Below the pieces are notes generated by a model. That model made no database searches. It saw only the letters and a list, made by a program, of their open reading frames with translations, and was not told the DNA's origin. A DNA stretch of 64,000 nucleotides, taken from positions 13,206-77,205 of the forward strand of contig JACPLR010000011.1 of the NCBI GenBank assembly GCA_016186425.1. Direction: 5' to 3'. The translations under genes were made by a program, and so were the position numbers. This document shows positions 12,108-64,000 of the stretch, piece after piece (positions within the stretch are counted from its first letter, which is position 1; the number at the start of each line of letters is the position of its first letter). Source of the DNA: Candidatus Pacearchaeota archaeon. Its GTDB lineage: Archaea; Nanobdellota; Nanobdellia; Pacearchaeales; GW2011-AR1.

Positions 12108-12218
12108 CATTCAAATCAGGCAAAAATATGGGGTGTTTAGCTAAACTTTTTTCTGAAAATATTGCAATAAACAAATTTAAAGGAAAGTTTGATAAAGAAA
12201 ACCATGGGTTGTCTTTAT
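12108..12218 (+). repeat. A-type leader variant (aaatcaggcaaaaatat...) fused to B-type module (ggaaagtttgataaagaaaaccatgggttgtctttat)
   Basis: Shares aaatcaggcaaaaatat and gaaaatattgcaat with the copy at 55401. The B module is identical to the copy at 58228. Confidence 0.7.
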
Positions 12219-12280
12219 TTTTTAAGCTTGAAATGTTAATCTTTATCGTTTAGGTGGTTTTTAACTTGTAGAGATCATTA

Positions 12281-12372
12281 ACTTACTCATTTAAATTAGG
12301 AAAGGATGTTATGTAATTCAAGAACTTTTTGAAAACATACAATATCAAATTTTTCTATGTGAAAAATTTAAC
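12281..12372 (+). repeat. A-type intergenic repeat copy (leader + hairpin 1 TTCAAGAA..TTTTGAA + hairpin 2 AAATTTTTC-tatgtg-GAAAAATTT-AAC)
   Basis: cttactcatttaaattaggaaaggatgttatgtaattcaagaactttttgaaaacatacaatatcaaatttttctatgtgaaaaatttaac. Confidence 0.8.
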
Positions 12373-12483
12373 TTGATTTTATAGCTGTTTAATTTAATTA
12401 GTGTATGTGCATAATAGATTAGATATAACATACTTCTTTTTTACTTCCATAGAACTTAAAAATCCTCAATACTTAAGCATTTT

Positions 12484-15822: not shown

Positions 15823-15880
15823 AAGGGAAGGATATAGTATTATTTCAAGAACAATTTTGAAAATATCACAACATCTTTAC
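15823..15880 (+). repeat. A-type repeat, partial (leader + hairpin 1 only)
   Basis: ataagggaaggatatagtattatttcaagaacaattttgaaaatatcacaacat. Confidence 0.7.
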
Positions 15881-16023
15881 ATGGTTTTTAAGCCGGATTA
15901 AGTATGTTAAAATTACAATTTTCAGTGGCTTATCCTAATAAATTATGGAAAGATATTACATATTTTCAGAACTCAGAAAGATTTATAAGCCATCTTTTTG
16001 ATTCTATTTATAATTAAATCAAA

Positions 16024-16059
16024 GGAAGCTTCATAAAAGAAACCTTTGTGTTATTTATA
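16024..16059 (+). promoter_or_regulatory. B-type X unit directly upstream of rpoL start (tttataATG context shared with rpl39e)
   Basis: ggaagcttcataaaagaaacctttgtgttatttataATG. Confidence 0.4.
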
Positions 16060-16320
16060 ATGAGAACTGAAATAATTAAAGATGAGAAGAATGAAATGGA
16101 AATATCAATAGATTCTCTGACTGTTGCAGAAGCTATTAGGGTTTATCTTCAGAAAGATGATGCTGTCAGCTTTGCTGCATGGAGACAGGAACATCCTAGC
16201 AAGCCAGTGCTTTTAAGGATTGAAACAAAAGGCAAATCTCCAAGAAAGGCAATTGAAGATGCTATTGAACATATTCAAAAAGACGCTGATAAGCTGGTTG
16301 CGGAAGTGAAGAAGGCTTAA
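16060..16320 (+). CDS. rpoL: DNA-directed RNA polymerase subunit L (Rpo11)
   Basis: The pattern MRTEIIKDE...ISIDSLTVAEAIRVYL...VSFAAWRQEHP...LRIETKG matches Rpb11/RpoL. Start chosen at the Met directly following the B-type promoter-like repeat (tttataATG); the ORF track's upstream Met at 16048 is less likely. Confidence 0.7.
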   Translation: MRTEIIKDEKNEMEISIDSLTVAEAIRVYLQKDDAVSFAAWRQEHPSKPVLLRIETKGKSPRKAIEDAIEHIQKDADKLVAEVKKA

Positions 16321-16460
16321 ATATCTACTTCGCAGAGATTATATAATTTCTGAAAAATAAAAGATAAATTATTAATAAAATTTATAAGTTTTTAATTTAA
16401 ATATTGGTAGTTCAAGTTTAATGAATCATGGAAAGTTATTGCAATATTTTCAAAATAATT

Positions 16461-16757
16461 TTAATTTTTAAATACTATTGAAGATTTTTCTACTGTTATG
16501 CATCTGCTGGCCTCTTCACCATGCCCGTATACGCCAAAAAAATTTCCGTGTGGGACAGCAAGTAATATAAGCCCTTTTTCTATATCTTCATCCAATACTT
16601 GAACTTCTAGCAAGGAATTATCAGAATTTTCATTAGTATGGCATTGGTCAAAATATATCTCAAACATTTTTCCTTCATAATCTCTAACCTTGCCAATTCT
16701 ATGACTGCTGAATAATCCTGGTTGGATATCATTAATTGGAATATAAGTCTTTCCCAT
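16461..16757 (-). CDS. Hypothetical protein (98 aa) with conserved-looking H/C residues
   Basis: Clean ORF. Contains CHTNE and VPHG...YGHGEE...C. No confident family assignment. Confidence 0.4.
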   Translation of the reverse strand: MGKTYIPINDIQPGLFSSHRIGKVRDYEGKMFEIYFDQCHTNENSDNSLLEVQVLDEDIEKGLILLAVPHGNFFGVYGHGEEASRCITVEKSSIVFKN

Positions 16758-16823
16758 TTTTTATTGTTAATTTATTATTTATGTTATTTTTAAATATTTG
16801 GATAATTCAGTAGATTTAAAACT

Positions 16824-16918
16824 CAGTAATTCTAGCGAAAAAGGCAGGGAAAGTTATGATGTGATTTCAAAATATTCTTGAAAATACACAATATAAAATT
16901 TTTCTATGTGAAAAATTT
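16824..16918 (+). repeat. A-type repeat copy (with upstream agta.ttctagcgaaaaa extension)
   Basis: tcagtaattctagcgaaaaaggcagggaaagttatgatgtgatttcaaaatattcttgaaaatacacaatataaaatttttctatgtgaaaaattttgcc. Confidence 0.8.
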
Positions 16919-16947
16919 TGCCTTATTTAGGCTAGGTTGTAGAATAT

Positions 16948-17136
16948 TTATAGCTTTTTTTCAAGCCCTTTATCTTCTTTTTTTCTTTCTATATTTCTAA
17001 TATCATACCATAATTTTATAGAATGGCCAAGAAAAAATAGTCCTCCAACTACCATTACTCCTGATGCTACATTTAGAAAGTTTGAATTAGTGATATAATC
17101 TGAAATTGTTTGGTAAGTTTGTCTAATTTCTTCCAT
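16948..17136 (-). CDS. Small membrane protein (62 aa)
   Basis: Single hydrophobic helix (VASGVMVVGGLFFLGHSI) and K/E tail. Small, so low confidence. Confidence 0.3.
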   Translation of the reverse strand: MEEIRQTYQTISDYITNSNFLNVASGVMVVGGLFFLGHSIKLWYDIRNIERKKEDKGLEKKL

Positions 17137-17220
17137 AGTTTTTGTTACTATGATATAGTTTATAAAGCTTTTGATTTCAAGTTATTTTTTAATTGATAAT
17201 TAGATGAGTAGTTTTTTTAA

Positions 17221-17817
17221 TTAAATCCCCCTCCTATCTAATTCGTTATTAACAATTGTTACAACTTGGCTGGCAAAATAAGTTTTGTTTCCTACTGAAA
17301 CAGGAGTTGCTATAGACTTGAGCTTTTTCAGCTCTTTCTTGTTAAACCCTTCATTATCCCCCAATAGAAAAACCGGGCTGTTAGCAATTTTTATTTTTCT
17401 TATGTCTTTTCCTTTGTCATCTAAAACATAAATTTCTTTCCCCTCTTTTTGCATTTCTTCTATTAATTTAAATAATGATTTCTTTTCAATCTCAAAACCT
17501 TCTTCTACAATTGTATTCTGACCTGATTTATATTTATACAGCATTTTTTTAATTAGGTTTGCAATATCTTTTTTGCTTATTGATATTTTGCCAACTGTTT
17601 TCTTGCCCTTTGGGTTTAAAAGAATATGTTTTGGTGGATCAGGAGGGCCGTTAAATACTAGATGCACTCTGACATCATCTCTCATATTGTGGGATATAAA
17701 GAAAGCATGAATTATAGAATGAATTGCAATATCCATTCTTCCGGCATCCATAAGATTCTCTGTTGGAAAATTGCCTGTTGTTCTTGCCCGGTTTGAGAAG
17801 TAAATGAATTCTCTCAT
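17221..17817 (-). CDS. trmY: SPOUT methyltransferase, TrmY-like (tRNA pseudouridine54 N1-methyltransferase family, DUF358)
   Basis: N-terminus MREFIYFSNRARTTGNF...DAGRMDIAIHSIIHAFFISH resembles the TrmY family (MR-F-----A-T-G-F...GRMD). Length ~200 aa. Confidence 0.55.
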   Translation of the reverse strand: MREFIYFSNRARTTGNFPTENLMDAGRMDIAIHSIIHAFFISHNMRDDVRVHLVFNGPPDPPKHILLNPKGKKTVGKISISKKDIANLIKKMLYKYKSGQNTIVEEGFEIEKKSLFKLIEEMQKEGKEIYVLDDKGKDIRKIKIANSPVFLLGDNEGFNKKELKKLKSIATPVSVGNKTYFASQVVTIVNNELDRRGI

Positions 17818-17927
17818 GATTATTTGAAGGAAGTAGTGTTATTAAGGTTAACTTTTTGCATCTAACTTATAGAGAATTCTAATTTCTAGAAGATAATTAA
17901 TAAAAATCAGAAACTTACTTATATAAA

Positions 17928-18005
17928 TAAGGTAAAGATGTGGCATGATTTCAGAACAATTTTGAATCTATACAATCCAAAATTTTTCTATGTGAAAAAT
18001 TTAAC
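17928..18005 (+). repeat. A-type repeat copy
   Basis: aaggtaaagatgtggcatgatttcagaacaattttgaatctatacaatccaaaatttttctatgtgaaaaatttaac. Confidence 0.8.
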
Positions 18006-18064
18006 ATGAGCTATTAGATATTTAAATTAATTGTAATAGCAACAATAGTTATGCCCTAATGGCG

Positions 18065-18688
18065 TTAACTTTTTGTATGTCTGCGAAAAATTTTTTTAGG
18101 AATTATTTTAATTCTTGCTGTTCCTTTTGCGGATATGTTTCCATTTGAATTTACATAGTCTGTTCTAATTTCATAATCTCTTTTTGAACCATCTATTTTT
18201 TTAAGTGTTCCAATATCAAGTAATGGATTTTGCAAAGGAATTCCATTAAATTCAAGTGTTTGGCTTAAATAAACTGGAAAGTTATCTTCCCCTATTAATT
18301 CTAGCCCTTGGCTGCTCCTTTGCAGGTCTCCTGCTATTAAATAAAGTAAATTAAATTTTTCATTATTCTCTCCACTATGGGTTCCATAACTAAATCTTCC
18401 CATGCATAATTCTTTTTCTTCTTTATCATGAAACATAAATTCTAAAGCATCTTCTTTCCTAGTTAAATTAAGCCATAAATTTAAAGGATAAAATGCTTGA
18501 TTTGTAAAACTAACCTCTAAACGTGAGACTGGCTTGCATAAATGACTTTCAACAAGTCTTGTATAATACATGCCTGGCATTACTTTTTGCCCTATATGAA
18601 GATTTATGTTTGGATCTTTTATTTCTTCAAGAAAGTTCTCAATTTTCTTATCTGATGTATTTTCTTCTGTTATTTTTATAGTTATCAT
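18065..18688 (-). CDS. Hypothetical protein (207 aa)
   Basis: Clean ORF between trmY and cbf5. No family recognised. Confidence 0.45.
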   Translation of the reverse strand: MITIKITEENTSDKKIENFLEEIKDPNINLHIGQKVMPGMYYTRLVESHLCKPVSRLEVSFTNQAFYPLNLWLNLTRKEDALEFMFHDKEEKELCMGRFSYGTHSGENNEKFNLLYLIAGDLQRSSQGLELIGEDNFPVYLSQTLEFNGIPLQNPLLDIGTLKKIDGSKRDYEIRTDYVNSNGNISAKGTARIKIIPKKIFRRHTKS

Positions 18689-18744
18689 ATAGTGAGTTCT
18701 AATTTATAATTTAAAAACCTGTTGTTTTTCAGTTTTTAATTGAA

Positions 18745-19638
18745 TCATTTTATCGGCTGAAGCACAAATTCTGGAGTTGCCAGAATTCTTTCACTTTTTA
18801 TTATCCTGAAAGTTCCTATAAATTTATCTTCATTAAAAACAGCGATTTTTTCATCTATCTTTAGTTCCTTTGCCTTTTCTAGATTACCTATGTATTCTTT
18901 AAATAATGGAGAGCCATGGTATAATTTATTTATGTATTGCTTTTTTACCTGCAAAACCGGGAGAACTTCAGATATAATCTCTCCTGGAATAAGCATTTCT
19001 CTTAATTGATTTTCACATTCTTTATTTCCTTTTTTATATTCTCCTACAGCTTCTAAAAATTCATAAATTGTATAGCTTTTATTTTCTTGGAAAATACTTG
19101 CTTGTATTCTTCTTAATTCAAGCATGTGAGCACCTTGGATTTTCTCGCCTAAATCAGATATTAATTTTCTAATATATGTTCCTGCTTCAACTTCTGCGAG
19201 AAATAAAATATCTTTTTTATTTTCACTAACTTCAAGGATTTCAAACCTGTAAACTTCTCTTTGCCTTTCCTCACGCTTGACACGGGATTTTACAGGAGGC
19301 AATTGAGTTATTGTTCCAATGAAGTTTTTTATTTCTTCCCTTAGCTTTTTTTCACTTATTTCTTCATGAATTCGCATTATTCCAATATATGTTTTGGTTT
19401 TTCCAATAAAATAAGGCATTAGCCTGCATGCTCGGCTTAATGCAACTGGCAATACTCCTGTAACCATGGGATCTAGAGTTCCAAAATGGCTTGTTTTCTT
19501 TAAATTCAGAGCATTTTTAATAATTAAATCAACTGAAAAGCTTGTAGGTCCTGAAGGCTTGTCAATGTTTATTATGCTAAACTCTAAAAGTTCTTTCAGA
19601 GTTTTCTTGGATTTAATGGTTTCTAGATCAATATTCAT
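18745..19638 (-). CDS. cbf5: H/ACA RNP pseudouridine synthase Cbf5 (TruB family with C-terminal PUA domain)
   Basis: TruB catalytic region INIDKPSGPTSFSVDLI...HFGTLDPMVTGVLPV with the catalytic Asp in GTLDP. A C-terminal PUA-like segment is present. Confidence 0.85.
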   Translation of the reverse strand: MNIDLETIKSKKTLKELLEFSIINIDKPSGPTSFSVDLIIKNALNLKKTSHFGTLDPMVTGVLPVALSRACRLMPYFIGKTKTYIGIMRIHEEISEKKLREEIKNFIGTITQLPPVKSRVKREERQREVYRFEILEVSENKKDILFLAEVEAGTYIRKLISDLGEKIQGAHMLELRRIQASIFQENKSYTIYEFLEAVGEYKKGNKECENQLREMLIPGEIISEVLPVLQVKKQYINKLYHGSPLFKEYIGNLEKAKELKIDEKIAVFNEDKFIGTFRIIKSERILATPEFVLQPIK

Positions 19639-19717
19639 GTTTAGATAATTACTTGTTTATTTTTAAATGTTTTTTGTTACAATAATGTTTATTAATCCTA
19701 GTTGAGTAATTAGTTTT

Positions 19718-20164
19718 ATGACAGGTGTGAGTTATTTTGAGGGTAAAGATGTCGGTTATAAAAGGTCTCATGAAATTATGATGGATTTACTTTTACCACA
19801 TTTTAAAACTAGAGAAGAAGTTCTTAATCATATTAAAAAACAGCTTTCTAAAGATGTACGTTTATGTGTTGGGGGATTAGATCATATTTTAGAATATTCT
19901 GGATTGTTTTTAAGTGAACATAATTTATCTAGATATAATATAAGGCAACAGTTAAATGGCAGCAATACTCCTTTAACTTATGAAGTGTTTGAACATTTAG
20001 TTGGCAGATTAGGAATTCTTCATGAAAGATTTTTTCCGTATGATGAGACTATTTCAGAATCAAAATATGAAGAATTATTTAAAAAGTTATGCAAGGGTAA
20101 TTGGGATCCAGTAGATTCTGTCAGAACTCTTTTAGAATTAAGATTTTTTCATGAACCAGAATAA
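19718..20164 (+). CDS. Hypothetical protein (148 aa)
   Basis: Clean ORF. No family recognised. Confidence 0.4.
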   Translation: MTGVSYFEGKDVGYKRSHEIMMDLLLPHFKTREEVLNHIKKQLSKDVRLCVGGLDHILEYSGLFLSEHNLSRYNIRQQLNGSNTPLTYEVFEHLVGRLGILHERFFPYDETISESKYEELFKKLCKGNWDPVDSVRTLLELRFFHEPE

Positions 20165-20167
20165 TTA

Positions 20168-21232
20168 TTATAATTTATATCTCCTCATTGTTTTCCATTC
20201 AATTAATGTTTTTAACAGGCCTGGTAATAAACCGGTTATAATGAACTTATTCTTGTATTGAAAAATTCCGTTAAATCTTCCTAAGCTTATTACAATAATT
20301 CTTTTTTCAGGACTATAGGACTTTGGTTCTTTATTATTTTCAATAAGATTTATGTTTTTAACAATTAATTTTGCGTGTTTTTCTGCATTTTGGGCAAGTT
20401 TTTCCTCTTTTATTGATGTTATATCTCCTGCTGCGAAAATGTTTTTAAGTGGCTTGTTACTTTTATTATCTAAAACCTGAAAATATTCATTGATATTTAC
20501 TTGTTTCTCGCTATTAAGCAATTTTTTTGGAATAAACTCTGAATTAGGGGTAATTCCTGTGCAGAGAAAAACAAGGTCTGCCTTAATTTTCCTGTTTTTA
20601 TCTGTTTTAACTAAATTATTTTCATAATTTAATGCTGTTTCGTTATAGAGTATGTTAACATTATGCTTTTTTAAAAATTTATCTGCATAATCTATTGTTT
20701 TTTCATGGTTTCTTTCCATTAGTTTATCATGTTTGTGAATAACTATTATCTCTTTTTCGTTTTTTCCTTTATAGAAATCAATAATTTCTCCAGCTAATTC
20801 CGTTCCAACAATTCCTCCGCCAATAATAATTATCTTTTTAGCAACATCTAATTTGTGATAATAATCTCTTATATGCCGTGTTCTTGTTAGATTAACAATA
20901 TTTTTTTCTTTAAACGGAGCATTGTAACTTGAGCCAGAGCAGATAAAGAGATAATCAAATTTTAATTTATGTTTATTAGCAGTAATTATTTCTTTTTCTG
21001 TCATTTTTTTGACACAATCAACAACAACTTTTGCTTTTTTCAGATAATGTGTATGCAAAACCTGAATTTTCTTGGCATGTTTAGGAGAAACTAGAGTTCT
21101 TAATATTCCCGGAGTGAATTCGTAATAATTCTTGCTGTCTATCAAAATAACATTGAAATCTTTATTTTTTTCAAGTTTCTTGGCTATGTAAGCTCCTGCA
21201 AAACCCCCACCAATAATAACTATGTTTTTCAT
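20168..21232 (-). CDS. FAD-dependent pyridine nucleotide-disulfide oxidoreductase (NDH-2/sulfide:quinone oxidoreductase-like)
   Basis: N-terminal Rossmann IVIIGGGFAGAYIAKKL, a second dinucleotide site IIIIGGGIVGTELAGE and FAAGDIT near the C-terminus. Confidence 0.7.
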   Translation of the reverse strand: MKNIVIIGGGFAGAYIAKKLEKNKDFNVILIDSKNYYEFTPGILRTLVSPKHAKKIQVLHTHYLKKAKVVVDCVKKMTEKEIITANKHKLKFDYLFICSGSSYNAPFKEKNIVNLTRTRHIRDYYHKLDVAKKIIIIGGGIVGTELAGEIIDFYKGKNEKEIIVIHKHDKLMERNHEKTIDYADKFLKKHNVNILYNETALNYENNLVKTDKNRKIKADLVFLCTGITPNSEFIPKKLLNSEKQVNINEYFQVLDNKSNKPLKNIFAAGDITSIKEEKLAQNAEKHAKLIVKNINLIENNKEPKSYSPEKRIIVISLGRFNGIFQYKNKFIITGLLPGLLKTLIEWKTMRRYKL

Positions 21233-21349
21233 AAAAACATAATGTTAAATGTGTTTAAAAAGATTAAGAAAGACAATTAGTAAAAAGAAAAAATATATAA
21301 AAAATAAAATGAAAGAAAAAACAAAAGAAAATAAATTAAAAATAAGAAG

Positions 21350-21733
21350 TTATTCCTTGCTAACTGCAAGTTTCCCAGGGCCTGTTAATGCCAGACTTAT
21401 AAGAGATGCAGCAGCAACCATATGGAAAATAAAGCTAGTTGATGATTGAGTGCTTATTCCAACAACTCCAAATGCTGCTACTAACATTATTATTACTAAA
21501 GGCCACGCGGTGTATTTTACTTTCCAGCCTACTAGTACACATACTCCAAATATTATTTCAGAAAGCAAGACAACCCATCCTAAAAACATTGGCAATGGAA
21601 ATCCTTGACTTGTCAGCAAGCCGATTATTCCGTCAGGATTTATCAGCTTTCCTATTCCTGCGTTTAGGAATAAAGCTGCAATTGCCAACCTGACTAATGA
21701 TGGCCCGTATCCTGCATATTCTTTTATGTTCAC
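21350..21733 (-). CDS. DoxX-family membrane protein
   Basis: Four predicted TM helices. The pattern VRLAIAALFLNAGIGKL is typical of the DoxX family. Adjacent to the oxidoreductase. Confidence 0.55.
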   Translation of the reverse strand: MNIKEYAGYGPSLVRLAIAALFLNAGIGKLINPDGIIGLLTSQGFPLPMFLGWVVLLSEIIFGVCVLVGWKVKYTAWPLVIIMLVAAFGVVGISTQSSTSFIFHMVAAASLISLALTGPGKLAVSKE

Positions 21734-21810
21734 TTTGATTTAACCCCCTTTCAGTTAATTATCATAGAATTTAATTATGTAAAATAAATATTCAATCTTT
21801 AAATACTTAA

Positions 21811-22431
21811 CTATTGTTTATTCCCTTTGTTTAACCCTTCATTTATTATTGTTTGGTAATATCCTTTAAGAGATTGGATTAAATCATTAGGAAATTCAAT
21901 GTTGAATTTATCCGGGTTTCCATCGCTATCCATGTCTACCATATAACATACTGCTTTTGGAACAGGATAATTATCTAATTTTAAAGTATTTGATGTTTCC
22001 CATACAATTCCTGGAATGTCTTGTTTTTTTGGTTTTCTTAATTCCTGATATTTTGTGTTTAGAATTTTTTTGGATTCATTTAACATTATTATTTTAGCAA
22101 ATTCCGCAATTCCATCTCCATTTTCATCCTTGATATAAGCTTGAAATCCTTTAGACGGCATATCTTCAATTGTAATAGACCTTTCTTCAGCATTCCAGTA
22201 GCATGTTAATACAGGATTGCTTAATTGCGGTGGGGGCTGAATGGGTTGCCCGGTATTTTTCAGAGAACTTTCCGGGTTATTTAGATAATTATATATTATA
22301 TCGCTTTTTGGAATTTGATATTGTATTTGCACTCTTTGCGCAAGATTTTGGGAGTTAACTATTGGGATATTTCCTAGAAATGGCATAGATATAACTGCTA
22401 TAAGACTTGTTTTTAAAAATCTGTTTATCAT
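21811..22431 (-). CDS. Secreted hypothetical protein with N-terminal signal peptide
   Basis: Signal-like N-terminus (MINRFLKTSLIAVISMPFLGNIPIVNS). No family recognised. Confidence 0.45.
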   Translation of the reverse strand: MINRFLKTSLIAVISMPFLGNIPIVNSQNLAQRVQIQYQIPKSDIIYNYLNNPESSLKNTGQPIQPPPQLSNPVLTCYWNAEERSITIEDMPSKGFQAYIKDENGDGIAEFAKIIMLNESKKILNTKYQELRKPKKQDIPGIVWETSNTLKLDNYPVPKAVCYMVDMDSDGNPDKFNIEFPNDLIQSLKGYYQTIINEGLNKGNKQ

Positions 22432-22487
22432 GCAAGAAATCTATTCTTTCTGATTTTATAAAGATTATTATGACGCATTATCTTGGC

Positions 22488-23183
22488 TTATTTTTTGCTT
22501 AGATATTTTTTTCTTTCTATTTCAGAAAGTTTTTCAATTGCGTATCTTAGCATAGTCCTTGGCATTGTTTTGCTGTATTGTTTTAGGAATTGCCTTAAGA
22601 CAGATTCATTCCTCTTGCCTACTTCTCTTAACATCCATCCGACTGCTTTTTGAATAAGGTCATGATTGTCTTTTAGCAGAATTTTGGATATGGCAATTGT
22701 ATGTTTAAATTGATTATTTTTAATGAAATAATAAGTTGAGACGATTGAAGTTCTTTTTTCCCATAAGTTATTAGATTTTGCAAGAGAATACAGCTCTGTT
22801 ATCTTGCTTTTATTATTAAAATAATATTTTCCAATTATTTTATCCGCGCTTAAATCAACCAAGTCCCAGTTGTTTATTTTTTGATTATGCTCTTTGTAAA
22901 AATTGACAATATTGTTATCGTTTGTTTCTTGGTATTTTTGGACAAGAATTAACACTCCAAGAAGCCTTTCTTCATGAATTTTACTTTCTAATAGAAGCTT
23001 TACTTCTTGTAAATTAATGTCTTTATATTTAATTGCTAGTTTTCTTGTTTCAGGAACAGTAACTCCAAGAAAAATATCTCCTTCTCCATAGCTTCCTGGC
23101 TGGGTTTTAAAGAATCTCTGCAAGATTTTTGCTTTTTCAGAGTTTGCTTTTGATTTCAGCTCTTTTTTTATTTGTGATATCAT
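22488..23183 (-). CDS. DNA alkylation repair protein (AlkD/AlkC-like HEAT-repeat glycosylase family)
   Basis: N-terminus ELKSKANSEKAKILQRFFKT...GDIFLGVTVPETRKLA matches the Pfam DNA_alkylation family pattern. Length ~230 aa. Confidence 0.6.
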   Translation of the reverse strand: MISQIKKELKSKANSEKAKILQRFFKTQPGSYGEGDIFLGVTVPETRKLAIKYKDINLQEVKLLLESKIHEERLLGVLILVQKYQETNDNNIVNFYKEHNQKINNWDLVDLSADKIIGKYYFNNKSKITELYSLAKSNNLWEKRTSIVSTYYFIKNNQFKHTIAISKILLKDNHDLIQKAVGWMLREVGKRNESVLRQFLKQYSKTMPRTMLRYAIEKLSEIERKKYLSKK

Positions 23184-23340
23184 GTTATTATTTTTAGTTT
23201 TTTAATATATAAAAATGTTTCATATTTTATTATCTATATATTAATTATAAAATATTTAACTATTAATTGATAAATAATAAAAGACACCAAAGTTTCTTTT
23301 ATGAAGCTTACTTTTAATTGCAAAGGGTTTTCTTTATGAA

Positions 23341-23400
23341 ACTTACTCATTAAAATTAGGCAAAGATATGATATGATTCAAGAACATTTTGAACTCATGC
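23341..23400 (+). repeat. A-type repeat, partial (leader + hairpin 1)
   Basis: acttactcattaaaattaggcaaagatatgatatgattcaagaacattttgaac. Preceded at 23281..23340 by two B-type modules in reverse orientation. Confidence 0.7.
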
Positions 23401-23510
23401 CATATTTCTGCCTTATCTTAAGCTAAATCAACTATTGCCAATTAAATTAAATAATTTTTAATATTCTAGCCAATCATAACCTTTAAAAGTCTATTTCTAT
23501 ATGCTATTTT

Positions 23511-24101
23511 ATGGCATTAAAAAAATCAAATAAAGAAAAATTAACTCAAGAAAGCTATGAAAAATATAGATGGTTCTACACTTCCAATAAGCATCTGGTT
23601 GTAGGAGGAAAAAGCGCAGAGCAAAATGAAGAAGTTATTAATAAGTATAAAGAGAAGGGGAAATATATTGTAATGCACACTAACTCTCCCGGAAGCCCGT
23701 TCTCAGTAATTCTTACAGATAATCCATCTCCAAAAGACTTGGAGGAAACCGCTATTTTCACAGCTTGTTTTTCAAGAGCATGGAGAGAAGGAAAGAAAAA
23801 AGAAATTGTAGATATTTTCTTGATGGAACAGATAATTAAAAATAAAAGTATGAAATCTGGTACATTTGCAGTAATAGGGCTTGTAGACAAAAAAACAGTT
23901 GAATTAAGATTATATTCAGAAATGCAGAAAAACAAGCTAAGATTCATTCCTTTCAAACCAAAAAATGAGGAAAGCATTTGTATCATATCTGGAAAAATTA
24001 ATAAAGAGCAATTTGCTGAGCAAATTGCCATAAAACTTGAAATTCCAAAGGAACAAGTTTTAAACGCGCTTCCCACGGGAGGTTTTAGAATAGTAAAATG
24101 A
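23511..24101 (+). CDS. NFACT-R/DUF814 domain protein (ribosome quality control RqcH C-terminal-like)
   Basis: YRWFYTSNKHLVVGGKSAEQNEEVINKY...YIVMHTNSPGSPFSVIL matches the DUF814 motif (W---S-G--I-vGr-a--Nd-L ... H----GS-V-l). Confidence 0.5.
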   Translation: MALKKSNKEKLTQESYEKYRWFYTSNKHLVVGGKSAEQNEEVINKYKEKGKYIVMHTNSPGSPFSVILTDNPSPKDLEETAIFTACFSRAWREGKKKEIVDIFLMEQIIKNKSMKSGTFAVIGLVDKKTVELRLYSEMQKNKLRFIPFKPKNEESICIISGKINKEQFAEQIAIKLEIPKEQVLNALPTGGFRIVK

Positions 24102-24156
24102 AATCTACAATAAATATGGATGCTGGATTCATAAAAACCCGCAGGAGGTTTTTATA

Positions 24157-24402
24157 ATGCAGCTTATATCAGCAGTTCAAATCGGAAAATCGGGAATATC
24201 AGAAAACCTAATTGAAACAATAAAAAGTCATTTTAAGCATCATCAGAATGTAAAAGTTGTATGCTTAAAAAACTCAAAAAGAGACAGAAATAGCATAAAG
24301 GCGATGGCGGAGAAAATTATTTCTCATCTAGGAAATAATTATACTTACAGAGTTATTGGCTTTACAATAATAATCAAGAAGTGGAGAAAACCGAAGAGAT
24401 AA
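24157..24402 (+). CDS. CRM-domain (YhbY/CRS1-like) RNA-binding protein
   Basis: MQLISAVQIGKSGISENLIETIKSHFKHHQNVKVVCL fits the YhbY GxxG pattern (GK-G------I---L--h-LvKV). Length 81 aa. Confidence 0.55.
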   Translation: MQLISAVQIGKSGISENLIETIKSHFKHHQNVKVVCLKNSKRDRNSIKAMAEKIISHLGNNYTYRVIGFTIIIKKWRKPKR

Positions 24403-24462
24403 CTTTATCATATATAATCCGCAACATAAATAATTAAAAAATCTATTTCTTATTAAAAAGCA

Positions 24463-24855
24463 ATGGAGACTCAAAGAGGAGTGTTATATGAAGATGATAG
24501 GTTAAAAGTAACCTACTTACATAGCCCTGAACCTGGTGAGCAAGCTAAAATAATAAGTGCAGAAGATCATGAATTATGGATAAAATTAGATGGAAACGAA
24601 TGGGGCAATTATATAATTCCAAGAGGAATTTTAGATGAGATAGCTACAACAAAAGGTTTAAAGAAAATTGAAAGAATTTTTAATACTTTTAATCCAGATT
24701 TAATGCATCATTTAAGAAATCAGAGATTAACAACTGCTGATGTAGCTTTAGCAATGGCTCAAGCAAAAATAAGTGAATTAGAATATAAAGTTGATTATTT
24801 TATTGACGAAGCAAGAAGAGCAAGAGAAGAAAGATTAGATAGGGAAGAAGAATAA
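24463..24855 (+). CDS. Hypothetical protein (130 aa) with acidic/Arg-rich C-terminal helix
   Basis: Clean ORF upstream of the r-protein cluster. No family recognised. Confidence 0.4.
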   Translation: METQRGVLYEDDRLKVTYLHSPEPGEQAKIISAEDHELWIKLDGNEWGNYIIPRGILDEIATTKGLKKIERIFNTFNPDLMHHLRNQRLTTADVALAMAQAKISELEYKVDYFIDEARRAREERLDREEE

Positions 24856-24971
24856 ACCAACAGCTTTATAAATCCCATTTCTCCCATATATTCAGACTTG
24901 ACCATTTTATGGTTCTATTGCCGAAAGGCAAGGTCTAATAAACATAAACTAAATAGAAAAATAAAATTACT

Positions 24972-25379
24972 ATGAGTGGCATTTATGAATTAAACCATAG
25001 AGAATTTAATAATAAGCTAGCAGAAGCTTTGAAGAAAGTTCCAGAACTTAAAGCTCCTGAATGGATAAATTTTGTAAAAACAAGTGTTGCAAAAGAAAGG
25101 CCAACTCAAGAGCCTGATTTCTGGCATAAAAGAGCTGCAAGCATTTTAAGGCAGATTTACATCAGAAAAACAGTTGGAGTAAACAGGCTAAAAATAAGAT
25201 ATGGCGGCAAGAAAAACAGGGGAGTTGCACCCCCAAGATTCAGGGAAGGCGGAGGAAAAATAATAAGAACAATACTTCAGCAATGCGAAAAAGCAGGCTT
25301 GCTGGAAAAAGCACCTGAAAAAAAAGCAGGAAGAAAATTAACCGATAAAGGAAAAAAATTACTGGAGAGCATAAAATGA
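24972..25379 (+). CDS. rps19e: 30S ribosomal protein S19e
   Basis: APEWINFVKTSVAKERPTQEPDFWHKRAASILRQIY and GGKKNRGVAPPRF are characteristic of S19e. Confidence 0.85.
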   Translation: MSGIYELNHREFNNKLAEALKKVPELKAPEWINFVKTSVAKERPTQEPDFWHKRAASILRQIYIRKTVGVNRLKIRYGGKKNRGVAPPRFREGGGKIIRTILQQCEKAGLLEKAPEKKAGRKLTDKGKKLLESIK

Positions 25380-25567
25380 AAACTAGGGTAAATGATGTTG
25401 TAGGATTAACAACAGATGGGAAATTAATTAGAGCAACAAAAGACATAGTTGGTTTGCCCACCGGATTTAATGAAGATGATAATTTATTTGATGAAACGAT
25501 ATATTTAAAAGATTTTTACGAAGATAGTATTGATTCAGAGAAAAGAATAACATATAATCTAATTTAA
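25376..25567 (+). CDS. Small hypothetical protein (63 aa) in r-protein cluster
   Basis: Overlaps the rps19e stop by 4 nt (ATGA), suggesting co-transcription. No family recognised. Confidence 0.35.
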   Translation: MKTRVNDVVGLTTDGKLIRATKDIVGLPTGFNEDDNLFDETIYLKDFYEDSIDSEKRITYNLI

Positions 25568-25599
25568 ATAAAAATATAAAAATGAAATACAAAATAAAA

Positions 25600-25672
25600 G
25601 GGAAGCTTCATAAAAGAAACCGTAGGCATGTAAGAGGAAAGTTTGATAAAGAAAACCAGGGGTTGTCTTTAT
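25600..25672 (+). promoter_or_regulatory. B-type repeat (X unit ggaagcttcataaaagaaacc + Y unit ggaaagtttgataaagaaaacc + hairpin) ending 2 nt before rpl39e ATG; BRE/TATA-like
   Basis: gggaagcttcataaaagaaaccgtaggcatgtaagaggaaagtttgataaagaaaaccaggggttgtctttataATG. A purine block followed by TTGATAAAG ~30-40 nt upstream of the start codon resembles archaeal BRE+TATA (inference). Confidence 0.45.
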
Positions 25673-25673
25673 A

Positions 25674-25883
25674 ATGACAGTTCCAAAACGCCAAAGACAA
25701 AAGAAAATAAAGCTAGCAAAAGCTGGAAGTCAGACAAAATGGGCTCCATTCTGGGTTGTTGTAAAGAAATACGGGGCTGGAAAAAGAATTCATCCTTCAC
25801 GAACAACAAGAATAAAAAGAAACTGGAGAATAAGAAAGCTTAAGATCAAGCCAAGAATAATCAGAAAGAGGCATCTAGGTTAA
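25674..25883 (+). CDS. rpl39e: 50S ribosomal protein L39e
   Basis: Basic 69-aa protein. KRQRQKKIKLAKA...NWRIRKLK matches L39e (KK-rLaKa-kqnr-vP-Wv----). Confidence 0.85.
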   Translation: MTVPKRQRQKKIKLAKAGSQTKWAPFWVVVKKYGAGKRIHPSRTTRIKRNWRIRKLKIKPRIIRKRHLG

Positions 25884-26213
25884 TTGACAAAAAATAAAAT
25901 GACAAAAAATAATATTGAAGTTATTGGGCTTTCGAAGCAAGATAAGGAAGAAATATATCTCTCTCTAAGAGATCCTGATATTAGATCTCATTTCGAATTT
26001 GTAGAAGTAGAGAAATTTCTAGTATCATCGCGTTATAATAATTATGTTTATCATGCAGAAACAGATAAAGGGGAAGTTACTGTTTTATTAATTAATTATA
26101 ATGAAACTCTCACGATTAAAACAGCTGGAAAAAAAGAAGCGAGAGAAATAGTTAAATCTAGACTTGAAGAAATTGCCAGGAAAGCAAAACAAACAATTTC
26201 CACATCAACTTAA
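25884..26213 (+). CDS. Hypothetical protein (109 aa) inserted between rpl39e and rpl31e
   Basis: Starts 1 nt after the rpl39e stop. Its start context ataaaATGACAAAAAATAA is shared with rpl31e. No family recognised. Confidence 0.4.
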   Translation: MTKNKMTKNNIEVIGLSKQDKEEIYLSLRDPDIRSHFEFVEVEKFLVSSRYNNYVYHAETDKGEVTVLLINYNETLTIKTAGKKEAREIVKSRLEEIARKAKQTISTST

Positions 26214-26386
26214 AATGACGTTAGAAACAAATCTTCCAAAATACCTAGAATATAAGGAATACATAAACAATTATGAAACGATAATTGCATTAACAACAAG
26301 AGCGACAAATCTTATGCTATTAAAACCTCAAGATGAAAATAATACTGCAGAAAATGGAGTGTTTTTAGTAATAGGAGAATAATAAA

Positions 26387-26962
26387 ATGACAAAAAATAA
26401 AGCAATCCCTGCTGAAAGAGAATATATTATTAATCTAAGAAGAGAAATAATGAAAGTTCCTAGATATAGGCGAACCCCTAAAGCAATAAAAGCAATAAAG
26501 CAGTTTATTGCAAAGCATATGCGGGTTCCAGATAGAGATTTGAATAAAGTAAAAATTGACAAATGGCTCAATCAAGAAATGTGGTTTAGGGGAATTCAAA
26601 ATCCATTGGCAAAAATAAAAGTTAAAGCAAAAAAAGATGGTGAAAATATAATAGTTTCTTTAGTTGATATTCCTGAAAAAATAAAATTCCAGATGGTGAG
26701 AGAGGAAAAATCAAAGAAAGCTTCTGAAAAGGTAAAAGAAAAGAAAAAGCAGGAAAAGACAGAAGTTGAGAAACAAATTGAGGAAAAGCCTAAAAGCCCT
26801 GAAGAAATTGAGAAAGAGAAACAGGAAGAAAAGGAAAAGGAAGAGGCTGTTAAAGAAGCTGAAATCAAGCAGGCTGATTTAAGGGCAAAAGAGCAAAAAC
26901 ATGTTCAAAAAATAAAGCCTGCAAAAACAGAAAGAATTCAAAGAAAAGCCTTGCAAAAATAA
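26387..26962 (+). CDS. rpl31e: 50S ribosomal protein L31e with long K/E-rich C-terminal extension
   Basis: IPAEREYIINLRRE...VPRYRRTPKAIKAIKQFIAKHM...VKIDKWLNQEMW matches the L31e core (~90 aa). It is followed by ~100 aa of low-complexity KEKEE repeats. Confidence 0.8.
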   Translation: MTKNKAIPAEREYIINLRREIMKVPRYRRTPKAIKAIKQFIAKHMRVPDRDLNKVKIDKWLNQEMWFRGIQNPLAKIKVKAKKDGENIIVSLVDIPEKIKFQMVREEKSKKASEKVKEKKKQEKTEVEKQIEEKPKSPEEIEKEKQEEKEKEEAVKEAEIKQADLRAKEQKHVQKIKPAKTERIQRKALQK

Positions 26963-26984
26963 TTGTTCTTGAATCATTACAATA

Positions 26985-27075
26985 ATAAAGACAACCAAGG
27001 TTTTCTTTATCAAACTTTCCTTTTAAGTACCAAAGGTTTTTTATCAAACTTTCCTTTTAAAAGGAAAATTTATCC
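26985..27075 (-). repeat. Two tandem reverse-orientation B-type Y units downstream of rpl31e
   Basis: aataaagacaaccaaggttttctttatcaaactttcc....aaaggttttttatcaaactttcc. Confidence 0.65.
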
Positions 27076-27194
27076 TGATTTATTAGTTGTTTAAATTAAT
27101 TTTAGATTAATGATATGTTTAATAACTTGATATTTATTTAATAAAAAATAGTAGCTCCTGCGTAAAAATCAGATAGAGATATTGCTATATTGAT

Positions 27195-27250
27195 AAAAGA
27201 CACCAAGGTTTCTTTTATGAAACTTCCTTTTATTAGGAAAAATTTATGCT
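27195..27250 (-). repeat. Reverse B-type X unit + hairpin-2-like end
   Basis: aaagacaccaaggtttcttttatgaaacttccttttattaggaaaaatttatgc. Confidence 0.65.
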
Positions 27251-27254
27251 TTAT

Positions 27255-27785
27255 TTAAAGGTTATAATTGGCTAGAATATTAAAACGACTATGTAATGGG
27301 CTGGGCAATCTTGTTGCTCGACTAGCTGGATATTCAACCCTGTAACCTTTAAATTCCTCTGGAAGATTATGTTCTTTAGGTATGATTATTTTTCCAAGAG
27401 GGGATTTTAAATGAGCTTTTATTACTTGTTCGAAAACAGGTTTTTGATTGAAAAATCCTTTCCATTCAGGAATTCTTACCAGTGTTTCAACAGAAGTTAC
27501 TCCATAATCCGAAATGTTTAAGTTCATATCTTTATTGTAATGTATGATTCTTCCTTGGAAACCATCTAATAATATTTTTGATAATCCTTTTGTTAATTTA
27601 GTTACAAAATCTAAACTTTTTTGTATTCCTTCATTACTTGTTGCACTATACCACTTTAACTGTTCTTCTTGCCTAGCTTTTTCATGAGTCATATATTTAT
27701 CTACAAATATATCAAAAGCTTCGTTGAAAACTGGGTCTCTTAATTTTTCTTGTAAAGATTCTGCTTTAATTGTTTTTTTTAACAT
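27255..27785 (-). CDS. Hypothetical protein (176 aa)
   Basis: Clean ORF next to rbcL. No family recognised. Confidence 0.45.
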   Translation of the reverse strand: MLKKTIKAESLQEKLRDPVFNEAFDIFVDKYMTHEKARQEEQLKWYSATSNEGIQKSLDFVTKLTKGLSKILLDGFQGRIIHYNKDMNLNISDYGVTSVETLVRIPEWKGFFNQKPVFEQVIKAHLKSPLGKIIIPKEHNLPEEFKGYRVEYPASRATRLPSPLHSRFNILANYNL

Positions 27786-27841: not shown

Positions 27842-29182
27842 CTAGTAAATAATCTTCGGGCCATAGCCCCAAAGCCTGACAGCTGCAGCTAATTCTGAGT
27901 TAGGATTTTGAGAGACAAATTTCCTTAAAGGAATTTTTTTTGCGTGAATATCTCGCGCTTGCTCAATTGCTTTTACACCTGCCTCAATTCCCCGAGGATG
28001 GCCAAGCAAACCGCCACCAAACTGAAGAATTACATCTTCTCCAAGTTCATCTAAGACATTTTCAATATCTCCAGGATGCAAACCTCCTGAAGCAACCATC
28101 CAAACCGGTTTTATATGATGCCAGTTTTGTCCAAGGGAAGGAATTTGCAAATTTGGTTTTGTTATTTTTTCCTGAAGAATATCTCTAATATATTTTGCTT
28201 CCCCATAATCTTCCATTTTTGCTAAAGGAGAACCTCCATGCATATTATCCACGCCTAGCAACCGATATAATTTTGCAAGAGCTATCATTGAAATTGAAAA
28301 TCCGTAAAGTTTTCCTTTTCCATGCACTCCAGGACTATTATCTCTTGTCATAAAACCGTGCATTGCTCTGTGGGCATGAATTGCCAAGCCTGTATTCATT
28401 CTTCTAAAAGTATCGATTGCTGCAAATCCTGTTGTTACAACATCAATCATGCAATAAACTCCTTTATTCTTCTTTATTACTTCAGCATGTTTTTTCATTA
28501 TCTCCATATTTGAATGAGTTATATTTGCCAAATAGAATTTTTTCCTTCCGGTAAGCTTTTCAGCTTCTCTTGCTTCTTTTAAAACAAGGGAAACTCGCTT
28601 ATCAAAATGATTGAAAGATAAATTTGTTAGGTTTTCATCATCTTTAATTCCATCATAAGTTCCATTCCCGGAAGTGAATAATATTCTTGCCAGTTTTGCC
28701 TGTTCAATGTCTGTTCTGCCTATTTTTGGTTTTGGAACAGTTGCAACTAGCGGACCACGAGGTTTTTTTAATATTTTTCTAATTCCTTCAACCCCAAAAG
28801 CAGGGCCTGGAAATTTTGCAATCATTGCTTTTGGGAATTTAATATCATAAATTCTTAAACCAGAAAGCATTTTCATCCCAGCTATATTTCCAGCAATTCC
28901 AGCTAATAATCCGGAAATATTATCTAACTCAAATAACTCAATTGGATAAGCAATTTTAAACATAAAATTCTCAGAATCTAGATCGTAAGCCAGCGCTTTT
29001 TTTCTAAGCGCTAGAGGAATTCCAGAATCCTTTCCATCGTAGACTTTTGTCCATGTTCCTGTTGATGATTCAGCTGCAATAGTTCCTGCAGCTTCTTCGA
29101 AAAGCTGTTTAGAATTTTTACCTGCTTTTTTTGCTTCAGTTATTGCAGACTCGCTTAATTCTGCTTTTAAGAGAGTTATCAC
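27842..29182 (-). CDS. rbcL: Ribulose-1,5-bisphosphate carboxylase large-subunit homolog (form III / II-III archaeal type)
   Basis: RuBisCO landmarks include KPKIG (KPKLG), GIKDDEN (carbamyl-Lys region, cf. FTKDDEN), HAHRAMHG (HIHRAMH) and GGGLLGHPRG (GGGTLGHPWG). The MHGG...LAK region aligns to HAGT...GK. Length 446 aa. Confidence 0.8.
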   Translation of the reverse strand: MITLLKAELSESAITEAKKAGKNSKQLFEEAAGTIAAESSTGTWTKVYDGKDSGIPLALRKKALAYDLDSENFMFKIAYPIELFELDNISGLLAGIAGNIAGMKMLSGLRIYDIKFPKAMIAKFPGPAFGVEGIRKILKKPRGPLVATVPKPKIGRTDIEQAKLARILFTSGNGTYDGIKDDENLTNLSFNHFDKRVSLVLKEAREAEKLTGRKKFYLANITHSNMEIMKKHAEVIKKNKGVYCMIDVVTTGFAAIDTFRRMNTGLAIHAHRAMHGFMTRDNSPGVHGKGKLYGFSISMIALAKLYRLLGVDNMHGGSPLAKMEDYGEAKYIRDILQEKITKPNLQIPSLGQNWHHIKPVWMVASGGLHPGDIENVLDELGEDVILQFGGGLLGHPRGIEAGVKAIEQARDIHAKKIPLRKFVSQNPNSELAAAVRLWGYGPKIIY

Positions 29183-29343
29183 ATAATTATCTTCATTTGC
29201 TGGTTTCCAGCCTTTTTTTGCTACGTAATTAAATTGAACTGCTATATAAAAAGAACCTACGGTTCTTCTTATGACCTCTCCCTTTTTTGAGATGGTTAAG
29301 AATTGCGTAAGATCACCTCTTTGAATATTACGTTTATTATATA

Positions 29344-36340: not shown

Positions 36341-36412
36341 TTTATTTATTGTTTATTATCTCAATTTGAATTAATATTCTTTTAGGTGATTAGTTTCTAT
36401 TATTATATTTTA

Positions 36413-63950: not shown

Positions 63951-64000
63951 TAATTTGGAGTAGATTAATAAAGCATTCATAGTTCATTTCAATAATTTTG

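Follow-up and report, generated by a model that had tools for sequence, protein, structure and literature searches.

Small intergenic repeats with promoter activity are exemplified by the Correia elements of Neisseria, which can also act as terminators or processing hairpins; they are 100-150 bp long and carry clear terminal inverted repeats and TA target duplications. For Nanoarchaeum equitans, Randau et al. (2008) reportedly described tRNA promoters that yield leaderless tRNAs. In N. equitans, tRNA transcription starts 26 nt downstream of box A, and terminators are described as polypyrimidine or T stretches (PMC3491384). Here we analysed an intergenic repeat, designated the B unit, in a 64,000-nt stretch of the small genome of a Candidatus Pacearchaeota member of the DPANN archaea (the window; contig JACPLR010000011.1, positions 13,206 to 77,205). 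Our best explanation, to which we give a probability of roughly 75%, is that the unit would be a complete archaeal core promoter of unusual length and conservation, with copies facing genes head-on that would end or insulate oncoming transcripts. The unit would then possibly be a two-way punctuation cassette.

The B repeat is real. The core pattern GGAARYTTSATAAARRAAACC, with up to three mismatches, matched the window at 10 positions (12183+, 16024+, 23291-, 23326-, 25601+, 25637+, 26999-, 27207-, 47902- and 58232+), compared to 0.23 expected from dinucleotide shuffles, and 0 of 100 shuffles reached 10 matches. The unit is about 40 bases long and consists of GGAA(A)G-TTSATAAA and an inverted repeat of about 12 bp ending in CTTTAT. 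A profile made from full B units recovered the pattern copies and two more, a truncated tandem unit and a diverged copy (27029-27059(-) and 63723-63760(-)). All copies reported in the initial annotation were present, at the same positions or a few bases away. Four further copies, at 11930-11968(-), 24117-24155(+), 29246-29286(-) and 48024-48060(+), were absent from its list, and the first two of these belong to one further variant, GCTGGATTCATAAAAACC-N7-GGTTTTTAT. With variants included, the window holds about 16 units. Tandem duplication of the cassette was common, with a period of 35-36 nt, and upstream copies lacked the 3' arm.

Three copies of the putative promoter class ended 1 nt before a start codon. 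These were the full unit 16020-16058(+) upstream of rpoL (RNA polymerase subunit L; ATG at 16060), the variant GCTGGATTCATAAAAACC-CGCAGGA-GGTTTTTAT at 24117-24155(+) upstream of a CRS1/YhbY-domain gene (ATG at 24157), and the tandem pair 25595-25672(+) upstream of rpl39e (ATG at 25674), in which the upstream unit (25595-25626) was without its 3' arm and the downstream unit (25632-25672) was full. The context (c)tttataATG that had been noticed at rpoL and rpl39e was thus correct. A tandem at 23277-23346(-), made up of a full unit (23277-23316) and an upstream partial one (23323-23346), lay in a divergent spacer 93 nt upstream of a DNA-alkylation-repair gene that also has its own TTTTTATAT box. 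The variant GGAGAGGTCATAAGAAGAACC-GTA-GGTTCTTTTTAT at 29246-29286(-) lay 63 nt before gene 27842-29182, which starts with GTG, and a degenerate unit (AGAGATTTCATAAAGAGAATT-ATA-AATTCTTTTTAT; 48024-48060(+)) was 65 nt upstream of a gene of 1252 aa. The full unit GGAAAGTTTGATAAAGAAAACC-ATG-GGTTGTCTTTAT at 12177-12218(+), inside a composite element (12108-12410), had neither a gene nor a tRNA at its end, and scpB began 265 nt downstream. The stop of gene 27255-27785 lies 22 nt before another full unit on the same strand (GGAAGTTTCATAAAAGAAACC-TTG-GTGTCTTTTAT; 27193-27232(-)), and beyond that unit come about 50 nt of non-coding DNA that close with T6.

A positional census was performed on 65 full B units from the window and from assemblies of relatives. 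In 30 to 32 of them, an ATG or the 5' end of a mature tRNA followed within 0-3 nt. For ATG codons, counted in ORFs of at least 40 aa, the figure was 17-18 of 65, compared to 1.5% at random positions (binomial p = 6e-17), and a tRNA 5' end predicted by ARAGORN lay at -1 to +3 nt of the unit end in 10 of 65. One unit (locus L013) ended 1-2 nt before an intron-containing tRNA, and another (L068), located at a contig end, directly adjoined an ATG. The genes behind the units are of the typical housekeeping kind with high expression, encoding S3Ae, S24e, S27a, L11, L37ae, L39e, Spt4, RpoL, an RpoP-like protein, prefoldin and YhbY.

Measured from the inferred start, the unit has its purine block at about -37 and its TATA-like box at about -27. 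An AAAGG-TTTAAAA box stands about 25-33 nt upstream of the ATG in most first genes of the window, in agreement with the near-leaderless starts proposed in the initial annotation, and tRNAs that lack a B unit show AAAGCTTTTTATAT some 24 nt upstream of the 5' end. At several divergent gene pairs, the B unit was just 43-73 nt away from the ATG of the other gene, leaving little room for another promoter. Because the geometry of the unit is that of ordinary promoters in the same genome, we read it as a probable complete core promoter for leaderless transcripts. The proposal that forward copies contain a BRE and a TATA box gains support across genomes, with units flush with an ATG or with tRNA +1 at dozens of loci and no longer at two only. 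Against the promoter reading, the TATA-like box is TTGATAAA or TTCATAAA and not the canonical TTTAWATA, and about half of the full units had neither a gene nor a known RNA at their end.

With the base that follows the unit as the reference point, positions of about -42 to -32 hold an A-rich run and the purine block GGAA(A)G and would be BRE-like, TT(G/C)ATAAA at about -31 to -23 would be TATA-like, and GGT(T)GTCTTT(T)AT at -12 to -1 would form a proximal element whose final T stands just before a purine start. From this layout, RNA polymerase would be expected to start at the ATG, one base before it, or, for tRNAs, on the first nucleotide of the mature molecule. Geometry and comparative position suggest that the products would be leaderless mRNAs and leaderless tRNAs. 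One cassette is reused at many translation, transcription and tRNA genes. Placed head-on at 3' ends, the same cassette would terminate or insulate the oncoming transcript and may fire antisense RNA.

Most units outside the ATG and tRNA class faced the 3' end of a gene head-on. An oncoming stop codon lay at -4 to +2 of the unit end in 11 (ATG-defined ORFs) to 14 (stop-to-stop ORFs) of 65 units, compared to 0.6% at random (p = 3e-18); this placement may be due in part to the reversed unit starting with ATAAAG, which offers a TAA. One B unit adjoined the 3' end of an oncoming tRNA, and by a hand count of units without a flush gene, about 24 had a convergent gene next to them and about 6 a co-directional one. 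In the window, a variant unit facing ftsZ (GCTCCAGGATTCATAAAAACC-N7-GGTTTTTAT; 11930-11968(-)) has as its final base the last A of the TAA that stops ftsZ (11928-11930). A tandem at 26985-27059(-), with a full unit (26985-27025) and a truncated upstream one (27029-27059), lies 22 nt from the rpl31e stop codon (26960-26962) and runs on into the tail of an A-type module (27043-27101), the other repeat type in this DNA. Also head-on are the full unit 47887-47927(-), inside a composite (47820-47950), to the XPD-like helicase gene (45665-47698, stop 47698); the full unit 58226-58267(+), followed by a reversed A-left module (58269-58340), to the PheRS beta gene (stop 58409); and the diverged unit GGAGATGTCATAAGAAGAACC-TT-GGTTCTTTTTAT at 63723-63760(-), inside a composite (63647-63800), to an amino-acid-kinase gene (stop 63584). 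Reverse copies had been said to point into the 3' ends of rpl31e and the helicase gene, as we observed. Alignment likewise upheld the mixed A/B composites at about 12108-12218, 47826-47945 and 63647-63790.

Read in reverse, the B unit presents a short hairpin and then a pyrimidine- and T-rich tract (GGTTTTCTTTATCAAACTTTCCTTTT), an arrangement that resembles a terminator. The earlier idea that reverse copies are terminators gains from their position at stop codons, but they are not classical G+C-rich hairpins, and a scan for bacterial-type terminators did not pick up the B hairpin. Head-on copies probably end or insulate the oncoming transcript, a role of which we are less confident than of the promoter role, and they may act as antisense promoters.

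The initial annotation described a 10-bp hairpin; a hairpin is present, but its arms form an inverted repeat of 12 positions, one of which is a conserved A.G mismatch. The arms covary over about seven sequence variants. In the arm alignment 92% of cells were paired, with changes on both sides in 8 of 12 pairs, in a set partly collected through a filter that demanded pairing; 0 of 500 shuffles matched this pairing, and slid controls gave 42-64%. When units were picked by the 5' arm alone, arm types agreed in 49 of 50, which represents a handful of variant lineages and not 50 independent events. The hairpin is weak and AT-rich (-4 to -8 kcal/mol, z-scores -1 to -3), and wobble pairs occur solely as G.T on the forward strand. 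We know of no requirement for a hairpin in archaeal termination, so the arm pairing stays unexplained by it, and promoter function alone also leaves the covariation unaccounted for. That complementarity between the TATA-side and start-side arms is kept through the variants speaks for a role that depends on pairing or for a copying mechanism.

Such pairing would suit a processing signal, in which the unit is a transcribed 5' leader whose RNA hairpin signals for endonuclease cleavage at its 3' edge, freeing leaderless mRNAs and, independently of RNase P, mature tRNA 5' ends. The covarying arms, the strand-specific wobbles and a hairpin that exactly adjoins the ATG or tRNA +1 favour this; in tandem arrays, transcription from an upstream copy would include the downstream one as a leader of 37 nt, and co-transcription is possible for units located 20-30 nt past a co-directional gene. 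We nevertheless consider it unlikely, since the unit has BRE-like and TATA-like boxes of its own at the distances of ordinary promoters in the same genomes, divergent pairs leave little upstream space for a different promoter, and head-on copies at stop codons are unaccounted for; we know of no nuclease of the required kind. Archaeal repressors usually sit between the TATA box and the start, and the palindrome (12+12 bp, 2-4 nt spacer) spans -28 to -1. It could therefore be an operator bound by a dimeric regulator and covering the TATA-to-start region of a promoter, co-regulating tRNA and translation-machinery genes as one regulon, and the genes served do form a coherent translation and transcription set. 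This is less likely still, because compensatory changes in both arms are unlike a fixed protein half-site and both the head-on copies at stop codons and tandem copies without a 3' arm fit poorly; a candidate regulator was not identified.

The distribution of the unit bears on a further alternative, that B units are selfish MITE- or REP-like palindromes spreading between genes, with a promoter look that stems from AT-rich composition. Near-identical units occur in multiple copies at unrelated loci, and assemblies break inside them. In 25 loci of relatives with the same ribosomal-protein cluster there were almost no B units, so the cassette is dispensable for these genes in general; units were missing at orthologous sites, which indicates that they turn over, and at one syntenic site (L009) a unit of another type stood in the opposite orientation. 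Mosaic composites with A-type modules, whose ends in alignment look like inverted copies of the B purine block, would also fit, as would the conserved stem mismatch, a feature of transposase-recognised hairpins. A selfish origin, however, predicts neither that about half of the copies end 0-3 nt before an ATG or tRNA +1 nor the enrichment at translation genes. The unit, arms included, was nearly unchanged in at least 31 Woese-, Pace- and Nanoarchaeota assemblies (MAGs), and coding-DNA identity between the window and the nearest unit-bearing assemblies was only about 67-69%. No transposase was found in a scan of ten proteins encoded in the window, a subset of its genes, and a non-exhaustive search identified neither target-site duplications nor true terminal inverted repeats. 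Bacterial and viral matches to the unit were without the 3' arm, and viral contigs had no match to the unit with its arms. We therefore regard purely selfish spread as improbable, about as much so as RNA processing, and favour the core promoter. The term mobile promoter cassette used in the initial annotation receives indirect support from the absence of units at orthologous sites of relatives.

Of known systems, REP/BIME elements are likewise short, imperfect, extragenic and multi-copy palindromes that form mosaics with other motifs and are frequent at 3' ends or between convergent genes, so the BIME comparison made earlier holds for form. They are bacterial, whereas the B unit is archaeal and, with about half of its copies placed as promoters, as REPs are not, primarily a putative promoter; no RAYT-type (REP-type) transposase or other defining BIME feature was seen. 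Like Correia elements and bacterial mobile promoters, B units differ in presence between related genomes, but their promoter type is archaeal and ends of the Correia kind were not identified in our non-exhaustive search. N. equitans shares with the putative B-unit promoter a conserved position at a fixed distance, leading to a start at the mature tRNA 5' end, and a polypyrimidine or T-stretch terminator resembling the reversed unit. The B-unit hosts are mesophilic Woese- and Pacearchaeota, another lineage, with TTGATAAA in place of TTTAAA, an added hairpin, and protein genes served by the same cassette.

No earlier description was found in open-access literature text, in line with the remark that such a system was not described for this lineage. 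The initial annotation is thus partly supported as a whole, and the B unit is consistent with an archaeal promoter variant without earlier description in that literature for this lineage. Like the canonical BRE/TATA promoter, it has an A/T-rich box of 8 bp, centred some 27 nt upstream of the putative start and immediately preceded by a purine-rich element, and a putative pyrimidine/purine start flush with the ATG, and its spacing is that of the window's ordinary AAAGG-TTTAAAA promoters. It differs from the canonical promoter in that about 40 bp, beyond the BRE and TATA box, are kept almost base for base across species, that its TATA box has G/C at position 3, that the TATA side is complementary to and covaries with the -12 to -1 element, and that units also occur in tandem and reversed at gene ends.

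The repeat family proposed in the initial annotation is real: its core pattern matched 10 times in the window versus 0.23 expected, and a profile search recovered every copy listed there. Four variant copies had been overlooked, at 11930-11968 (- strand), 24117-24155 (+), 29246-29286 (-) and 48024-48060 (+). The unit, designated the B unit, consists of a purine block, GGAA(A)G, a TATA-like box, TT(G/C)ATAAA, and an inverted repeat, with the TATA-like box inside its 5' arm and ..CTTTAT closing its 3' arm. A scan with the 5' half of the unit alone, using one genome per species, returned at least 106 loci. Among the matches listed, those from bacteria were singletons that lacked the 3' arm, and the whole unit was present, near-unchanged, in 31 assemblies of Woesearchaeota, Pacearchaeota and Nanoarchaeota. 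A scan of viral contigs gave six matches, and a link to viruses was ruled out because the 3' arm was found in 0/6. One DPANN-type unit precedes a tRNA-Leu gene on a 4.4-kb contig that is assigned to a Heimdallarchaeota MAG (L100, JACZSS010000337.1); this contig is probably mis-binned. At Woesearchaeota loci, another conserved motif, ATCAGGCATGACCCTAA(C/T)T(C/T)AA and its variants, often lies upstream of the unit (related loci L013, L024, L053, L081, L092, L100 and L106), and looks like the tail end of longer tandem repeats with a period of approximately 54-58 nt.

The placement of the unit was assessed in the window and in 50 loci from the 31-assembly set, which together contain 65 full units. 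Seventeen to 18 of the 65 end 0-3 nt 5' of the ATG of an ORF, compared to 1.5% of random positions (p ~6e-17). The ends of 10/65 lie -1 to +3 nt from the 5' end of a tRNA, one further full unit ends 1-2 nt 5' of an intron-bearing tRNA, and one abuts an ATG at the end of a contig. The first base after the unit is the ATG (or 1 nt 5' of it) or the +1 of a tRNA in 30-32/65, and about half of the full units lie upstream of, and are oriented toward, a gene or RNA gene, far more than chance would give. The genes behind units encode ribosomal proteins S3Ae, S24e, S27a, L11, L37ae and L39e, as well as Spt4, RpoL, an RpoP-like zinc ribbon, prefoldin and a YhbY-domain protein; an SRP54-like protein and SMC were recognized by eye from translations.

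If the start is placed at the first base 3' of the unit, the purine block falls at about -37 to -32 and the TATA-like TT(G/C)ATAAA at about -31 to -23, and the final T of the unit is followed by a purine start. In all units the BRE-like GGAA(A)G, with TAAAA before it, directly adjoins the TATA-like box. Archaeal core promoters in general have an A/T-rich TATA box centered ~26-27 nt 5' of the transcription start and a purine-rich BRE next to it on the upstream side. This spacing is that of ordinary promoters here, as judged from the AAAGG-TTTAAAA found ~25-33 nt 5' of the ATG in most first genes of the window, from the canonical box (e.g. AAAGCTTTTTATAT) that tRNA genes lacking a B unit carry instead, ~24 nt 5' of the mature end (L009, L020, L042, L046, L081, L086, L102 and L106), and from the 26 nt between box A and the start of tRNA transcription in N. 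equitans (PMC3491384). Several units lie between divergent genes, with only 43-73 nt from the unit to the ATG of the other gene, leaving little space for another promoter. Judged by sequence and position, the unit is a putative complete core promoter from which mRNAs and tRNAs would be transcribed without leaders.

A scan with bacterial models for sigma-70 promoters and G+C-hairpin terminators gave counts equal to the shuffled expectation and flagged 0 units, a result that is uninformative for an archaeal host. To our knowledge, nothing is known by experiment of the transcription signals of uncultivated Woese-/Pacearchaeota, and a full-text literature search found the motif in no paper and no description of promoters for these groups. 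The unit offers a precise, testable promoter consensus for Woese-/Pacearchaeota with a predicted start site, which could improve the annotation of gene starts and small RNAs in their MAGs and could be used as a genetic part.

The positional evidence for leaderless tRNAs comes from 11 tRNAs behind units, with 5' ends -1 to +3 nt from the unit end. That tRNAs without a unit also have a box at ~24 nt suggests that leaderless tRNA transcription may be general in these DPANN lineages. The tRNAs behind units would extend the fixed-distance arrangement of N. equitans to mesophilic DPANN lineages, which raises the question of their need for RNase P. No Rfam match to RNase P RNA was found in the window or in 18 related loci, all of them genome fragments and not whole genomes, and the literature on DPANN and RNase P yielded general statements only.

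About half of the full units have no gene or Rfam family behind them. Rfam searches of the window (at gathering and permissive E-values) and of 18 related loci (at gathering thresholds) identified no known RNA at or after these orphan units, and small ORFs behind them were dismissed as the reading frame was not conserved. The next gene is convergent for ~24 orphan units and co-directional for ~6, indicating that their placement is non-random. The stop codon of an oncoming gene falls between -4 and +2 relative to the unit end in 11/65 (ATG-defined ORFs) to 14/65 (stop-to-stop ORFs), compared to 0.6% of random positions (p ~3e-18). The flush stop codon is usually the TAA inside ATAAAG, and part of the excess may be due to a TAA supplied by the reversed unit itself. 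One unit adjoins the 3' end of an oncoming tRNA. In the window, the ftsZ stop codon and the variant unit at 11930-11968(-) have the last base of the unit in common, the rpl31e stop is 22 nt away from the unit pair at 26985-27059(-), and three further units are directed at the helicase, PheRS beta and amino-acid-kinase genes from ~140-190 nt away. Read in reverse, the unit is ATAAAGACAACC-N3-GGTTTTCTTTATCAAACTTTCCTTTT, a short hairpin followed by the pyrimidine/T-rich tract GGTTTTCTTTATCAAACTTTCCTTTT, and a conserved A.G mismatch in the stem means that the T4 run is present only on the oncoming-side strand. Our reading is that these head-on copies would help to end or insulate the oncoming transcript; they could also be antisense promoters.

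The arms of the inverted repeat remain complementary as they vary. At least seven arm variants retain complementarity, including the pairs ATAAAGAAAACC/GGTTGTCTTTAT, ATAAAAGAAACC/GGTGTCTTTTAT, ATAAGAAGAACC/GGTTCTTTTTAT and ATAGAAGAAACC/GGTGTCTTCTAT, and these variants represent a few lineages, not many independent events. Across 28 distinct units, a set gathered partly with a pairing filter, 92% of cells were paired and both sides had changed in 8/12 pairs; 0/500 shuffles equaled the observed pairing, and slid controls reached 42-64%. The arm types agreed in 49/50 units selected by the 5' arm only. The hairpin is weak (-4 to -8 kcal/mol). Arm pairing is left unexplained by promoter function.

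We tentatively propose, with a probability of about 0.3, that in some Woese-/Pacearchaeota the unit is a two-way 'punctuation' cassette able to propagate itself, a leaderless promoter in one direction and a terminator-insulator in the other, in which pairing is needed for action or for copying. In the forward direction the unit would be a strong promoter firing leaderless mRNAs and leaderless tRNAs, and RNase P would then be dispensable in part, as in N. equitans. Oncoming transcription would be terminated or insulated by the unit in the reverse direction. The arms would stay complementary because pairing, as RNA or as melted DNA, would be part of the working of the unit or of its copying to new sites. 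Independently of this proposal, a single 40-bp sequence with covarying arms appears to act as a promoter one way and lies at stop codons the other way, an unusual design that suggests how very compact genomes pack signals. What appears new here is an unusually long conserved candidate archaeal promoter cassette whose arms covary, which is repeated in tandem and which also occurs head-on at the ends of genes.

The history of the unit was traced at the ribosomal-protein cluster. In 25 metagenome loci with relatives of L31e (43-67% identity) there are almost no units, and in most of them rpl39e immediately follows the rps19e stop codon. In 12/25 of these loci, rpl31e has a DNA-alkylation-repair gene downstream of it on its own strand; in the window this gene is upstream of rpl31e on the other strand (22488-23183). 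The near-absence of units and the gene order in these relatives suggest that the units at this cluster are lineage-specific and located at rearrangement junctions, and, judging from the position of the alkylation-repair gene in the 12 relatives, the 3.8-kb NFACT-R-to-rpl31e segment appears inverted in the window. A 32-nt inverted repeat (97% complementary) at 23456-23487 and 27254-27285 flanks this segment, and both of its junctions have B units. In locus L009, the syntenic PheRS spacer contains units of another type in opposite orientation. Plain insertion of the tandem pair before rpl39e was considered and is not clean, as in L120, the closest relative with rpl39e, the upstream gene is a different one and a B-like stretch is embedded in the 3' end of its coding sequence. 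At 2506-2551 of L120, the last 45 nt of this coding region are B-unit-like (GTTGAATTAAAAGAAAACCAAAGAGTTGCAGTTTAAA-ATG) and may be an internal promoter within coding sequence. The window proteins scanned, which represent part of its genes, included no transposase. At locus L047, an Rfam RT-16 RNA match (1601-1831, 87.7 bits) lies close to two B units with tiny lysine-rich ORFs (MAKKKSSKK...) behind them.

The other repeat family of the window, the A-type, lies on the + strand in 14/15 copies (12298-12399, 15824-15866, 16845-16946, 17930-18033, 23358-23404, 27043-27101, 36263-36366, 43198-43265, 44442-44539, 45472-45554, 47832-47954, 52013-52113, 55406-55492 and 63876-63966; - strand, 58269-58318), with neighboring genes on both strands. 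This bias suggests a link to replication direction or strand-specific copying. The A-type center, reversed, is GAAAAATTTTATAT and resembles a canonical BRE/TATA box. A C/D-box sRNA reading of the A-left/B-downstream segment was dismissed, as C and D boxes did not recur consistently on inspection by eye. In the composite elements, an A-type scaffold has its central hairpin swapped for, or lengthened by, B units, and the ends of these elements are alike in inverted orientation (GGAAAGTT.TGAT / ATCA.AACTTTCC). Short ORFs at 45468-45719 and 51915-52109 are mostly A-type repeat sequence and are probably not genes.

The window has a G+C content of 30.4% and encodes the archaeal markers RpoL, ribosomal protein L31e, FtsZ and ScpB, with L39e as a weak match; ARAGORN found zero tRNA genes in it. 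Among the loci compared, the closest relative belongs to a Pacearchaeota MAG, and the coding regions of the two are ~67-69% identical at the nucleotide level. Proteins identical to those of the window were found only in short Logan contigs from runs SRR12113420/22/30, which break within repeat units; the repeats account for the fragmentation of assemblies of such genomes at intergenic positions. A 1252-aa gene contains at least 10 tandem 24-nt repeats (48742-49077) and, further downstream, a 48-nt repeat family. The intergenic stretch at 892-1007 matches L040 and L095, from another Pacearchaeota species, at 83-89%, well above coding identity; it holds a CCCTGTGC..GCACTGGG stem, has no match in Rfam, and may be a small RNA of no known family or a further repeat family.

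The B units were compared with known systems. REP/BIME elements are imperfect palindromic extragenic repeats in mosaic clusters, a feature present in B units, and the likeness to BIMEs suggested in the initial annotation holds for form (palindromes and mosaics); no further hallmark of BIMEs or MITEs was observed. BIMEs are associated with a REP-specific tyrosine transposase (RAYT) in the genome, and MITEs have terminal inverted repeats and target-site duplications. Oligo-T terminators place a T-rich tract just 3' of the stop on the sense strand, as do reversed units, including the one at ftsZ. There are also parallels with N. equitans, whose terminator has been described as a pyrimidine/T-rich tract (PMC3491384) that GGTTTTCTTTATCAAACTTTCCTTTT of the reversed unit resembles, and whose leaderless tRNAs, at a fixed promoter distance and with the start at tRNA +1, are matched in position by the 11 tRNAs behind B units.
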